Below, in pieces: positions 31,472-36,014 of a stretch of DNA of 64,000 nucleotides. Positions within the stretch are counted from its first letter, which is position 1. Each line of letters starts with the position of its first letter. Location: positions 64,001 to 128,000 of the forward strand of contig CAWISW010000001.1 of assembly GCA_963838925.1 (NCBI GenBank), in the 5' to 3' direction. This stretch comes from an uncultured Nitrososphaerota archaeon (GTDB lineage Archaea; Thermoproteota; Nitrososphaeria; Nitrososphaerales; Gagatemarchaeaceae). A model generated the notes under the pieces. It was not told where the DNA came from. It searched no databases and saw only the letters and a list, made by a program, of their open reading frames with translations. The position numbers were made by a program, and so were the translations under genes.

Positions 31472-32746
31472 TTATGCGATATTTGCGTCAGTATAATTCG
31501 ACGCGGCTCTTGGACTATACGCGCCGCTTCTTTTCGCCCACCGTTGAGCCGCTTCAAATGAAACAAGCAGCTTCTTCGTTCTAGCGATTTCGACAACAAT
31601 CTTGGGTACAGACATTCGTTCTCCCGCGAGTCTCATGATCTCGGATCTAACATCGGGCGGGAGTCTTTCCTTCTTCTCCAGTCTTGGTGTTGTAGCCATG
31701 AGCTCCAGAAGGCTGTATCTAACGGTTCGGATGTGCGGCGAGAAGACCGGGACTCTAAACGAGTTTATCGCCTGAGACTTTACCAAGGAAACAGCTTCTC
31801 TATTTCGAAATCCCTTAAGGCCGAACGTTGCCAGAAGTTTGATAACGAAATCCCAATCTGGGATGACCCAGAATTCGACGGTTTGACTCGCCACGCTTAC
31901 CGATCCGTCCGACTCGGCGATGCCATGAAGCAATCCCAAACGAAACTCGAGGGGAGCATCTAGAGCCCAATTCATCTGCACCGGGTCGTAGGTCGTGTGC
32001 TGACCATCCTTTAGGGCTAGGACCACGTTGAATGTCCAGTCTACGAATGGAGAGGATTGGGAGACCCATTCATAGAAGCCAAAAGGCTTGTCAGCCGGCT
32101 TTGGGACGTCTCTCTTCCGTCCCATGCGTAATCCGAGTTGGTTCGCACAAAGGCTTGTGAAATCCCCAATCTTCACATTTGTTTCGTATCTCTTGCTTAG
32201 GACGACATGAACATTTCTGTGGCCGCGTCCTGGCTTTGGTTTGTGCGCGTCCCCTATGATCATCCCAACGAAGAAGCCGAACAAGTACTCCCGGCTGATT
32301 CCAACAACCGGGGGCCCTGGAGGGACGAGCTTACTCAAGACGTGATCAACGTCACTCCAGGAGGAAATAGCTTCGGGGACTTCAACGAAAGAGCCAATTG
32401 GGTTCGCATACCCATGAGAACATTCCATCGTTAGCCACACGAACCCCTCCCGGGGTTGGCCAAATTCAAGTAGGGCCTTAAGATAGAGACCAAGCTTTGG
32501 CGGCCTAGTCAGCTCCGACCACTCTGTAGCAAGATCTTTCTTGATGTCAATCTTCTCTAGGACGTTCGGCGGAGCACGACTGTTGCGGGAGAGGTTCAGG
32601 ACGTCTACGAACTCGGAGAATAGTCTCACGTCACGAGGAAGCGGTTCGCAACCTTTCCAGAAGAATTTCGTAAAGCCGAGGTCGTCACCGTGCGCAACGA
32701 CGTGGTCAATCATGCGTTGCTCTAGCTCCGCGCCCGCGACGCCCAT
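31472..32746 (-). CDS. Free-standing double-motif LAGLIDADG endonuclease-like protein with HTH-like C-terminus
   Basis: FFVGMIIGDAH and LLHGIAESDGSV motifs; C-terminal EIMRL...MSVPKIVVEI...VSFEAAQRW; lower GC than flanks. Confidence 0.8.
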   Translation of the reverse strand: MGVAGAELEQRMIDHVVAHGDDLGFTKFFWKGCEPLPRDVRLFSEFVDVLNLSRNSRAPPNVLEKIDIKKDLATEWSELTRPPKLGLYLKALLEFGQPREGFVWLTMECSHGYANPIGSFVEVPEAISSWSDVDHVLSKLVPPGPPVVGISREYLFGFFVGMIIGDAHKPKPGRGHRNVHVVLSKRYETNVKIGDFTSLCANQLGLRMGRKRDVPKPADKPFGFYEWVSQSSPFVDWTFNVVLALKDGQHTTYDPVQMNWALDAPLEFRLGLLHGIAESDGSVSVASQTVEFWVIPDWDFVIKLLATFGLKGFRNREAVSLVKSQAINSFRVPVFSPHIRTVRYSLLELMATTPRLEKKERLPPDVRSEIMRLAGERMSVPKIVVEIARTKKLLVSFEAAQRWAKRSGAYSPRAASNYTDANIA

Positions 32747-33759: not shown

Positions 33760-34131
33760 ATGTTCATGGGTCAAATCTCGCGAGCCCTCGCGCTGGAGCA
33801 GGCGGGCGACTACCGGAGTGCGGTCAAATCGTTGATGAGCGTCCTCGATGACATCGAGGCGTCCTCGGAGTGGGACAGCGTCTGCGAATGGATAGCAAGC
33901 TGTTTCGAGAAGATCGGCGAGCACGCCGAGGCAGGGTTCTGGTACGAGACCGCGGGCCAGCTCACCCTCGCAGGCGACTCCTCGCCGGTCCCCCGGAAGA
34001 TATCCTCGGCGCTCTTCTTCGTCCAGAGGGCGTCGGACTGCTACTCGAGGTGTGGAACGGAGGGCGAGATGGCGACCGCCCGGACCAGGGCGATAAGCGT
34101 GGTGTTGGAGAGAGCATGTCCTCCCGCGTGA
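33760..34131 (+). CDS. Small helical TPR/SNAP-like hypothetical protein
   Basis: EQAGDY..A, ASCFEKIGEHAEAGFWYETAG, RASDCY helical-repeat pattern; host-like codon usage. Confidence 0.6.
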   Translation: MFMGQISRALALEQAGDYRSAVKSLMSVLDDIEASSEWDSVCEWIASCFEKIGEHAEAGFWYETAGQLTLAGDSSPVPRKISSALFFVQRASDCYSRCGTEGEMATARTRAISVVLERACPPA

Positions 34132-34231
34132 TGTTCTTCCGCTCGATCGCTCTGCGGCCGAGGCCGAAGCGCCGCAAGACCGGCAACTAGTCCTCACCAG
34201 CCGGTCCCCCCCTCAGCGGGGCTCGGGCGCT

Positions 34232-34801
34232 CTAGTTCTTGGGCTCAGACCCGCTACCGAGGAAGAAGTTGCCGATCTTGGTTATCCTCTCCCTGATGGT
34301 GGTCGCGGTCGTGTCTATCTGGAAGTAGAGGTCGAGCGATTTCAGGGACTGGGGGAAGTTGGGCCCGCGTCCCACCCTCAGGAGGGGTCTCTCGGTGCAG
34401 ACGGCAAGGACGGAGTCGATGAACTTCTTCCCGTCCTCTGGCGACTTGCTAACTGAGCACCGGATGGACAGAATCTCCCCGGTGTCGACGTCCCTGGCCA
34501 TCCAGAGGACTCCCTGGGTTTCACTGTTAAGATAAGCGACGTTCTCCTCGATCGTCACCAGGCGCCTCTTCTTCTCGGGCGTCGGGAGGGCGGCCATGAC
34601 CGCCTTCTGCGCGTCGTGGACCGCGACGTGGGATATCCCACCCAGGAGCTTGGACGCATCTCGTGAAGTGTACCCTGAAGCGCACAGGACCGCTGCCATG
34701 ACCTTCTTTTCCGTGGGAATCCTGCTCCTTTTGATGACGTTCTGGTCCTTCGCCCACGCAGAGAGGAACTCGATTATGGTGGGAGGAGGGGGGCTCGTCA
34801 A
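34232..34801 (-). CDS. Catalytically degenerate IS6-family transposase derivative (HTH retained, DDE lost)
   Basis: RSRIPTEKKV...GYTSRDASKLL..ISHVAVH (IS6-type HTH); LVTIEEN (typically IAVDET), LWMARDVDTGEIL, LLRVGRGP (typically LVD.GPW); third acidic motif and C-terminus absent. Confidence 0.78.
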   Translation of the reverse strand: MTSPPPPTIIEFLSAWAKDQNVIKRSRIPTEKKVMAAVLCASGYTSRDASKLLGGISHVAVHDAQKAVMAALPTPEKKRRLVTIEENVAYLNSETQGVLWMARDVDTGEILSIRCSVSKSPEDGKKFIDSVLAVCTERPLLRVGRGPNFPQSLKSLDLYFQIDTTATTIRERITKIGNFFLGSGSEPKN

Positions 34802-34958
34802 GACCTGTTAAGATAAGGCGCTCCACACTCATTAATGAGCTTTGCGAAATTATTCTCAAAAAAGGGTCCACGAACAGCGTTAAGTTAGCGTTCGGAGGCT
34901 GTTAACTTATCAGAATTCATAACGGTTATCTAGAAATTCCTACCCTAACAGAGACAAG
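34802..34958. promoter_or_regulatory. Divergent promoter region with inverted IS-end-like 13-mers
   Basis: CTGTTAAGATAAG at 34805-34817 (+); CTGTTAGGGTAGG on - strand at 34939-34951; related CTGTTAACTTATCAG 34899-34913; palindrome CTCATTAATGAG 34828-34839. Confidence 0.65.
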
Positions 34959-36014
34959 ATGGAAGTAAGTAACGAAGGAATGGACTTCATAGAAGCCGAA
35001 AAAATCGCAGCAGTCATGCGGATGGCCAAACCTAACGTGACCGTAATTGGTCTCGGAGGAGCCGGAAGCAACATCATCTCCTGGATCAAGGAGAGAGGCA
35101 TCGCCGGCGGCAAACTCATCGCCGCCAACACAGACGCAGCACACCTGAGCATCACCAAGGCGGATCGCAGGATCCTCATTGGAGAGAAGCTCACGCACGG
35201 CCAGGGCGCCGGAGGGTACCCACAGCGCGGTGCGGCAGCAACAAAGGAGTCGATCGACGACTTCCAAAAGGAAACACAAAACAGCAACATCATCTTCCTG
35301 TGCGCGGGCCTCGGAGGAGGCACCGGAACAGGTGCGATCGAGGTCCTCTCAAAGGAACTCGCAAGGCAGGGCCGCCTAGTGATAGGGGTCGTGACTTTGC
35401 CGTTCTCTGTCGAGAGGTTCAGGTACGACAACGCGAAGAACGCTCTCAAGGTTCTCCGCCAGTACTGTGACACCGTCGTCGCAATCGACAACACCAAACT
35501 GTCCAAAGTCGCAGGCGACCTGCCGTTACAGCAGGCGCTGGGCGTTGCCAACGAGCTGGTAGGCCAGTTCGTGAAGGGCATCACCGAGACCATCACCACG
35601 GCCAGTCTCATCAACATCGACTACGCTGACCTCCGCGCCATATGCGAGCGCAAGGGTCTAGCCGCGATCGGTGTCGGAGAGGCAAAGGGCTCTGACAGGG
35701 TTGAGGTCGCGATCAGGCAGGCCATCGAAGGGCAGCTGCTCGACATCAGAGACGTTACCAAGTCGCAAGGGGTACTCGTCCACGTGACAGGCGGCTCGGA
35801 CGTGACGCTGGAGGAGGTCACAAGGGCAGGCGAACTCGTAACAAAGTCGCTACCTCCGAAGGTCAGGATCGTCTGGGGCGCACGCGTAGACCCGTCTCTG
35901 GAAGGCCGTGTAAAGTGCATGGTCATGCTCACTGGCGTGGAGAGCACTTTCCTCGCTCAGCAGCAAGAGTACAGCTTCTCGTTCGGTCCTCTGAAGATCG
36001 GTCCAAAGAGCTAA
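34959..36014 (+). CDS. ftsZ: Cell division protein FtsZ (canonical, FtsZ2-like)
   Basis: IGLGGAGSN, NTD, GQGAGG, GLGGGTGTG, PF..E, LINIDYAD, WGAR, LTGV. Confidence 0.96.
   Translation: MEVSNEGMDFIEAEKIAAVMRMAKPNVTVIGLGGAGSNIISWIKERGIAGGKLIAANTDAAHLSITKADRRILIGEKLTHGQGAGGYPQRGAAATKESIDDFQKETQNSNIIFLCAGLGGGTGTGAIEVLSKELARQGRLVIGVVTLPFSVERFRYDNAKNALKVLRQYCDTVVAIDNTKLSKVAGDLPLQQALGVANELVGQFVKGITETITTASLINIDYADLRAICERKGLAAIGVGEAKGSDRVEVAIRQAIEGQLLDIRDVTKSQGVLVHVTGGSDVTLEEVTRAGELVTKSLPPKVRIVWGARVDPSLEGRVKCMVMLTGVESTFLAQQQEYSFSFGPLKIGPKS

Follow-up and report, generated by a model that had tools for sequence, protein, structure and literature searches.

The insertion sequences (IS) of the IS6/IS26 family are the closest described relatives of the system discussed here; their features are drawn from two accounts of the family (PMC6807381; PMC7986276). 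The short archaeal members carry a transposase of the PF13610 family, in which an N-terminal helix and a helix-turn-helix (HTH) precede an RNase-H-like core. They are some 700-800 bp long, with terminal repeats of 14-18 bp or more and 8-bp target-site duplications. In the second account, the transposase gene is transcribed from a promoter located in the left end, and the ends of IS26 and IS257 drive the expression of neighbouring genes (PMC7986276). The gene that concerns us, ORF189, shares the helix-HTH and the RNase-H-like core of these transposases. It lies back to back with a paralogue of the cell-division gene ftsZ, in a stretch of 64,000 nucleotides (the window, to which all plain positions below refer) of the genome of an uncultured archaeon of the Nitrososphaerales (1.84 Mb, 61% G+C, three contigs). 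Its product is probably an exapted transposase that acts as a local DNA-binding regulator, of itself and of the divergent ftsZ, through operators derived from the ends of its ancestor; the binding, the sign of the regulation and the effect on ftsZ are what we infer from the comparison of sequences.

ORF189 differs from IS6/IS26 elements in being a single-copy gene of fixed synteny, with its DDE residues replaced and its C-terminus truncated, that shows purifying selection across more than 100 clusters of homologues. No pair of ends flanks it: the end-like sites are all located upstream of the ORF or inside it, and there is no 8-bp target-site duplication, which would have no pair of ends to flank. 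As judged from its sequence, it lacks four of the five features that define an active IS6 element, namely the catalytic triad, a pair of flanking ends, the target duplication and mobility; ORF189 should be filed as IS6-derived and not as an IS. What recalls the autoregulation of IS6 by its left end is that the end-like sites overlap the predicted promoter region of ORF189, with the predicted ftsZ promoter among them. However, the promoters described for IS6 ends are bacterial, of the sigma-70 type, and belong to mobile copies, whereas the present copy is immobile, with promoters apparently of the archaeal TATA/BRE type (BRE standing for B recognition element) and four or five phased sites.

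In eukaryotes, DDE transposases exapted together with their end sequences into DNA-binding host factors are well documented; to our knowledge, such exaptation is rarely documented in bacteria and archaea. SETMAR, with the Hsmar1 ends, is a domesticated DDE transposase that binds the ends of its ancestor, and we liken ORF189 to it. Kat1 (PMC4763223), another domesticated transposase, invites the same comparison for its sequence-specific binding to end-derived DNA. Both, however, are eukaryotic proteins of other superfamilies (mariner and hAT) that keep some catalytic activity, while ORF189 has no triad. Yet other transposon proteins that target DNA, the TnpB-derived TldR regulators and the RAYT/REP systems, were made into host factors with cognate repeats. 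Their folds and mechanisms (RNA-guided for TldR, HUH tyrosine transposase for RAYT) are unrelated to those of ORF189, and none is known to be an IS6-type DDE protein or linked to ftsZ. A search of the literature, with supplements and subscription journals outside its reach, found no prokaryotic exaptation that was IS6-type or ftsZ-linked.

The ancestry of ORF189 is best seen in its alignment with an intact 224-residue transposase of the PF13610 family (DDE_Tnp_IS240), from a genome of the same genus (31% identity over 175 residues, BLASTP E 5e-20). This relative belongs to an element of 767 bp whose terminal repeats measure 14 bp and which has an 8-bp duplication; multi-copy relatives full of stop codons are present in genomes of the same order. 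At the alignment columns of the DDE triad, ORF189 and its orthologues have E for the first D (D is kept in a few), G for the second D, and T, S or G for the E. The C-terminus is short by about 45 residues as compared with the intact transposase, and the archaeal signature E--F---K-R, present in the latter, is absent. The original prediction, made from a reading of the sequence, had spoken of a dead transposase; BLASTP and the DDE columns together identify it as a catalytically dead relative of the IS6 family.

A model of the protein (AlphaFold2, 64 sequences, predicted local distance difference test, pLDDT, 84.6) shows four N-terminal helices followed by a beta-alpha core. The helices, at residues 9-19, 30-41, 46-52 and 58-71, all have a pLDDT above 88. 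When the model was compared with the PDB using Foldseek, the ISCth4 transposase (E 1.5e-4) was among the top matches, together with the Mu transpososome and retroviral integrases; the transposase domain of SETMAR (3f2k) came further down, at rank 19. The scores of these matches are weak, and the set they make is coherent. A DNA-binding domain is present in the model, in a layout that matches the helix-HTH described for the family (PMC6807381). Within it the tripeptide S57-H58-V59, in the putative recognition helix, is invariant or nearly so between the orthologues of ORF189 and the intact transposase, which fits a retained specificity.

There is but one copy of this gene in its genome. A search for paralogues returned the self-match only, and no other short IS6-type protein was found in the host genome. 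Its relatives elsewhere are many: the database search yielded 114 clusters of homologues at E <= 1e-5, called 'transposase-like' or 'hypothetical' where they are named, and none with a Pfam domain. Most are about 180-195 residues long and 55-86% identical to ORF189; some two dozen others are either shorter or less similar (42-47%). Among eight intact orthologues (28 pairs) the ratio of non-synonymous to synonymous substitution rates, dN/dS, has a median of 0.167 and a maximum of 0.31, at dS values of 0.9-1.8. These figures indicate that the gene is not decaying. With its descent from a transposase, its immobility, the purifying selection that has long acted on it and its orthologous position, ORF189 is what sequence comparison would call a domesticated transposase.

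The orthologous position is strict. Of 41 related genomes searched, 22 belong to the same genus, and nine of these have an orthologue, with 69-84% identity. In the window and in these nine genomes alike (10/10 loci), the gene is divergent from the same ftsZ. Metagenomes add 37 loci, 23 of them at 64% identity or above, and 20 of the 23 have the divergent ftsZ; for the remaining three, the sequence available upstream does not exceed 205 bp, so that the informative set is 20/20. The linked ftsZ orthologues are 93-98% identical at the protein level over full-length matches, and 86-100% where the end of a contig cuts the match. Two other canonical ftsZ genes of the host genome are 76% (G000:C2:557274-558320) and 65% (G000:C2:138062-139057) identical to the window copy.

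The DNA between ORF189 and ftsZ holds the second half of the argument. The original prediction had noticed there the 13-mer CTGTTAAGATAAG, present twice (34524-34536, within ORF189, and 34805-34817, separated by 3 nt from the minus-strand start codon TTG at 34799-34801), together with an inverted 10/13 match, CTGTTAGGGTAGG, at 34939-34951 on the minus strand, 7 nt ahead of the ftsZ ATG at 34959, and the variant CTGTTAACTTATCAG. All these coordinates hold on re-examination. The sites so named are there; a fourth intergenic site, S2, had been overlooked (Table 1). As a bare repeat, the pair of 13-mers is unremarkable. The genome has 119 exact direct repeats of 13 nt or longer whose copies are no more than 400 bp apart, a density of about 4.1 per 64 kb, and nine of them are in the window; matches to the 13-mer with three mismatches or fewer are eight in the window as against 4.74 expected, a count reached by 13 of 100 shuffles. 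What sets the locus apart is elsewhere. The whole genome holds only these two copies of the 13-mer, and its 10-nt core, GTTAAGATAA, is confined to the same two sites, S0 and S1. Sites resembling GTTAANTTAAC with at most two mismatches are 101 genome-wide, and this locus alone has three within about 100 bp; of the five with a single mismatch, two are found here. The genome-wide scan that had been called for as a way to define a regulon disclosed no second cluster of these sites. Since the core is unique to the locus, which has the only three-site cluster, and since sequence and spacing are both kept in 25 orthologous sequences, chance is excluded and the sites are real.

Table 1. Features of the ORF189-ftsZ locus (window positions) and terminal repeats measured on related elements
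Feature	Position	Strand	Description
ORF189	34232..34801	-	189 aa, single-copy; starts with TTG, where some orthologues have ATG; N-terminal helix and HTH, then a degenerate RNase-H-like core; C-terminus cut short
S0	34524..34536	+	Exact 13-mer inside ORF189; its minus strand encodes A-Y-L-N as GCT TAT CTT AAC
S1	34805..34818	+	In 23/25 sequences, conservation 0.85; between TATA-like block and ORF189 start
TATA/BRE-like block of ORF189	34829..34842	-	Minus strand AAGCTCATTAATGA; AAGCTTATAT/AAGCTTATAA in orthologues; conservation 0.77; putative promoter element
S2	34877..34893, core 34879-34889	.	Quasi-palindrome CGTTAAGTTAGCG; in 24/25 sequences, conservation 0.86
S3	34899..34913	+	CTGTTAACTTATCAG; in 23/25 sequences, conservation 0.85
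AATTCATAA block	34914..34922	+	Directly 3' of S3; conservation 0.99 in 25 sequences, highest of the intergenic region
A+T-rich tract	34923..34937	+	GGTTATCTAGAAATT; sequence variable in orthologues though A+T-rich; conservation 0.75
S4	34938..34951	-	Degenerate inverted site, minus strand CTGTTAGGGTAGG; in 18/25 sequences, conservation 0.78
ftsZ paralogue	34959..36014	+	PF00091 + PF12327; one of three canonical FtsZ genes in the genome
G036 terminal repeat			GATGATGTTAAGATAAG; 717-bp element
G032 terminal repeat			GATGTTGTTAAGATAAGG
G028 terminal repeat			GATGTTGTCACGATAAG
G029 terminal repeat			GGGATTGTCAAGATAA
G018 terminal repeat			GATACCGTTAAGAT
G015 and G002 terminal repeats			GGCGCTGTCAAGTTAAGG and GGCTCTGTCAAGTTAAGG
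G038 terminal repeat			GGCTCTGTTCAGTTAAC

Conservation was followed in 30 loci. Their intergenic regions amount to 27 different sequences, of which 25 have the standard length of about 157 bp, one has a tandem triplication and one is longer. The pattern scored was GTTA[AG]NNTA. Across the 25 sequences of standard length the distances that separate S1, S2, S3 and S4 are fixed, at about 72, 22 and 38 bp, and the site blocks reach a conservation of 0.78-0.86 as against 0.49-0.61 for the spacers. The 22 bp between S2 and S3 make two turns of the helix. S2 itself has one mismatch to GTTAANTTAAC and becomes a perfect palindrome, GTTAACTTAAC, in several orthologues. S4 sits between the A+T-rich region of ftsZ and its ATG, in the orientation that the left end of an IS would have with respect to ORF189. 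The triplicated case is a metagenome locus (L101) where the intergenic region extends to 388 bp by tandem triplication of a unit of about 115 bp, a partial copy of the ftsZ start included.

These sites are not simply the promoters under another guise. The TATA/BRE-like block upstream of ORF189, which reads AAGCTYATWWAT on the strand of the ORF and is centred about 33 nt from the start codon, would be its promoter element, on account of its position and of the archaeal TATA/BRE consensus. On the ftsZ side, AATTCATAA is a candidate BRE/TATA, or else the site of another factor, and the A+T-rich tract that follows is a candidate alternative TATA for a leaderless ftsZ messenger. As both the TATA/BRE-like block and AATTCATAA are conserved blocks of their own, the sites appear distinct from TATA/BRE elements, and what we have is a set of repeated, conserved sites at or beside predicted promoter elements. 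Phylogenetic footprinting, proposed at the outset as a test, thus finds the sites kept in the orthologous regions, apart from the TATA-like blocks. An RNA element was also considered; Rfam gave no match at E <= 1 across 34100-35100, S2 varies without covariation, and the idea was dropped.

The likeness of the sites to the ends of IS6-type elements, which the original prediction drew from the ends of Pyrococcus members of the family, now rests on measured ones: the terminal repeats of related elements, 670-794 bp long, in other genomes (Table 1; further repeats of this kind are GATGTTGTTAAGATAAG and GGCKCTGTCAAGTTAAGG) agree with the 13-mer, and with the end that the original prediction cited. 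Three of 12 such elements, intact or decayed, have perfect 8-bp flanking duplications; lengths and duplications accord with the two accounts of the IS6 family (PMC6807381; PMC7986276). The string TGTTAAGATAAGG of S1 corresponds exactly to positions 6-18 of the ends of the G036 and G032 elements (same-order genome), and the site core TGTTAAGATAAG(G) has its exact counterpart in terminal repeats of elements in related genomes. When the intergenic region was aligned locally with 22 IS ends, the best match placed a terminal repeat on S1. Four of the ends gave scores reached by none of 200 shuffles; another (L084) stood at 0.02, outside the sites, and the rest had p > 0.02. What the sites keep is the inner 12-13 bp of the end, the outer 5 bp next to the cleavage point having been lost. 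Past the terminal repeat, none of the 22 ends showed similarity between the left-end region of the IS and the intergenic region. We also considered whether a whole fossil element might span 34222-34955 (734 bp), with GGCGCT at 34223-34228 as its right end; this hexamer is not conserved in eight aligned orthologues and the candidate was rejected. In the same alignment there is no conserved remnant of a right end 3' of the ORF189 stop. Elsewhere in the genome, a lone 16/18 match to the G002 terminal repeat, GGCTCTGTCAAATTAAAG, lies at G000:C2:546823-546840 on the minus strand; it has no counterpart within 3 kb and is possibly a solo IS end.

The intragenic copy S0 offers a further line of evidence. 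The codons GCT, TAT and CTT that it imposes account for 15%, 19% and 14% of their respective codon families in the long ORFs of the genome. Yet, of 30 distinct versions of the orthologue, 20 retain S0 as TATCTTAAC and three more as AATCTTAAC; tyrosine is encoded by TAT in 20 of 21 cases and leucine by CTT in 24 of 28. The four versions that have CTC have also changed at the neighbouring bases, so that S0 is either whole or gone. That rare codons are kept while synonymous sites are saturated (dS 0.9-1.8) points to selection on S0 as DNA, an argument that depends on these rare codons; by plain nucleotide identity, S0 is located outside the most conserved windows of ORF189.

The sites follow ORF189 and not ftsZ. 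They are absent upstream of the 76% ftsZ paralogue (four loci) and upstream of ftsZ in two genomes of the same order that have no ORF189. They are equally absent upstream of a second, split copy of ftsZ in genome G009, where the similarity ends exactly at the start codon. This last copy (L045/L046, G009:C3:1909434-1910873) is a duplicate of the window ftsZ paralogue with 85-90% identity, in two pieces some 400 bp apart; it has a TTG start and unrelated upstream DNA, and a contig of run X2 has the same upstream junction. Conversely, a sister clade of proteins about 40% identical to ORF189 never adjoins ftsZ, and has GTTAAG 4-8 nt from its own start codon in 11 of 11 loci (nine of them distinct). 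An inverted CTTAAC is found about 40 bp further in the same 11 loci, and the two flank an AATAGG-like block.

The scenario that we favour for ORF189, as the most economical one, would unfold as follows. A short archaeal IS6-type transposase would have lost its catalytic residues and its C-terminus while keeping the N-terminal helix and HTH, and purifying selection would have maintained its gene on the chromosome in a single copy. The DNA that it recognizes would be the inner part, 12-13 bp, of the terminal inverted repeat of its ancestor, with the consensus YGTTAAGWTAAG. Bound at S1, between the TATA-like block and the start, it may repress its own synthesis by standing in the way of the pre-initiation complex. 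The pair S2 and S3, with 22 bp between them and abutting the putative ftsZ promoter block AATTCATAA, would allow it to act on ftsZ, as would S4, between the A+T-rich promoter region and the ATG of the gene; S0, within the ORF, may serve as a partner for looping or as a roadblock. The whole promoter region of the ftsZ paralogue would thus lie among operators. Going one step further, an IS6-type element that had landed beside a duplicated ftsZ might have been turned as a whole into a regulatory module, with its transposase becoming a self-regulating repressor, copies of its end becoming operators, and its end region becoming the promoter of ftsZ. We hold this extended version to be possible, if less likely than not.

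Several observations weigh against a regulator that acts on end-derived operators. ORF189 has no Pfam match at E <= 0.1 and none in NCBIfam, and a genome-wide search for PF13610 misses it. Frameshifts interrupt two of the ten genome orthologues (L003 and L010), and they may be errors of assembly or signs of decay. No more than four of the 22 IS ends align with the intergenic region better than shuffled sequences. Matches of 13/18 to the G015 or G002 ends are found 113 and 96 times in the genome, which makes likeness over the full length of the end weak; the argument is for this reason made to rely on the exact core of 12-13 nt and on its conservation. S1 is oriented as an end whose interior would be toward ftsZ, and is therefore not simply the ancestral left end in place. 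S4 is degenerate, with four mismatches to the palindrome and presence in only 18 of the 25 sequences. Conservation peaks in AATTCATAA, a block that is not end-like, and another factor may dominate the control of ftsZ. Finally, the contigs of public RNA runs, which come from relatives, cover ftsZ from 34970 onward only.

The most serious competitor would retain the end-derived DNA and dispense with the protein. An IS6-type end region would have been kept as a fossil promoter, for its TATA/BRE and initiator elements or for some other host factor, and ORF189 would not bind it. Bacterial ends of the family do supply their neighbours with outward or hybrid promoters (PMC7986276), the best conserved block has nothing of an IS end, and S1 and S4 are placed where initiator or leader sequences are expected. 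Basal elements, however, would not recur four to five times at fixed spacing, nor would one of them sit within an ORF under rare codons; a general factor is made unlikely by the lack of such sites elsewhere in the genome, and the sister clade, whose gene neighbourhood is another, keeps two inverted sites on either side of its predicted promoter. On balance a fossil promoter is unlikely. One might also keep the protein on its sites and change its business: it could pair them in the manner of a transpososome, or promote recombination or inversion of 34802-34955 with the help of a catalytic partner. The mutual inversion of S1 and S4 and the presence of an intragenic copy would suit such a transaction, and four long PF13610 proteins with intact-looking domains, encoded in the same genome, could in principle provide catalysis. 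Against this, the segment has one and the same orientation in 27 of 27 distinct orthologous intergenic sequences, the sites have not conserved the outer 5 bp that adjoin the cleavage point, the ends of the long IS6-type elements are different ones (GGTTCTGTTC...), and the contigs of two DNA and two RNA runs, out of 20 public runs found, show no joints while leaving 34755-34900 uncovered. We consider it quite improbable.

A miniature inverted-repeat transposable element (MITE), that is, a non-autonomous IS6 derivative lodged between the genes and next to a dead ORF by coincidence, would explain end-like sites in mutual inversion 134 bp apart, and MITEs of the IS6 family measuring 227 and 336 bp are on record (PMC7986276). 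Yet the genome has no second copy, no duplication flanks the segment and the outer end bases are lost; moreover, the segment is syntenic and conserved with ORF189 in 30 of 30 loci with enough flanking sequence, its sole length variant being the local tandem triplication of L101. A MITE is thus very improbable, and the MITE-like or invertible segment that the original prediction had offered as an option has no support: the genome holds one copy, neither a target-site duplication nor a right end was found, and the orientation is the same in 27 sequences. As for a chance repeat in an A+T-rich intergenic region, the commonness of nearby 13-mer repeats in this genome (119) and a three-mismatch count not above that of shuffles would invite it; the persistence of the sites across 25 distinct sequences, their constant spacing, their agreement letter for letter with IS ends that were measured, and the upkeep of rare codons have already refuted it, and we give it practically no credence.

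If an IS6-type element did become such a module as a whole, a clade of soil Nitrososphaerales would have a canonical FtsZ gene under the control of a switch of transposon origin. As far as sequence evidence goes, the case is unusually complete, in that the family of the ancestor, measured ends, a dead catalytic site, selection and multiplied putative operators are all legible there. For a gene of cell division in an archaeal lineage that is uncultured, it provides a candidate regulator open to direct testing, whose 12-bp sites are defined, and it would illustrate in nature how the insertion of a transposon may become a module combining promoter and repressor.

That this clade has canonical FtsZ at all is unusual in its genus. 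With a threshold of E <= 1e-60, FtsZ has no match in 12 of the 22 same-genus genomes. Five of the 12 were searched again at a laxer threshold: four had only a tubulin-family match of 22-23% identity, and one had none; one of the four is a single contig, 95% complete. Such a sharp split between presence and absence of FtsZ inside one GTDB genus is odd. A search for the Snf7/ESCRT-III family in the host genome gave no match, with a weak control in one genome only. In the main text of the paper on the Gagatemarchaeaceae (PMC10640624), a term search finds no mention of FtsZ, cell division or transposases.

The long PF13610 proteins of the host genome make up a separate IS6-type group. There are four matches in ORFs of 308-404 residues (G000:C2:411696-412109, C2:509294-509710, C3:179458-179889 and C3:395451-395786), and three of the four genes have end-like strings GGTTCTGTTC... 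nearby (C2:509147, C3:179310 and C3:395264/398021). Closer to ORF189, a conserved ORF of 24 codons, MSSRVMFFRSIALRPRPKRRKTGN (34116-34190, plus strand), overlaps in another frame the stop of a TPR-like gene (33760-34131); its changes in orthologues are mostly synonymous, and it may encode a small protein or a frameshift extension. Further away in the window, an ORF of 424 residues (31472-32746, minus strand) has no match in Pfam or NCBIfam. It comprises glycine/aspartate-rich motifs, FFVGMIIGDAHK and LLHGIAESDGSV, which we take to resemble those of LAGLIDADG homing endonucleases.

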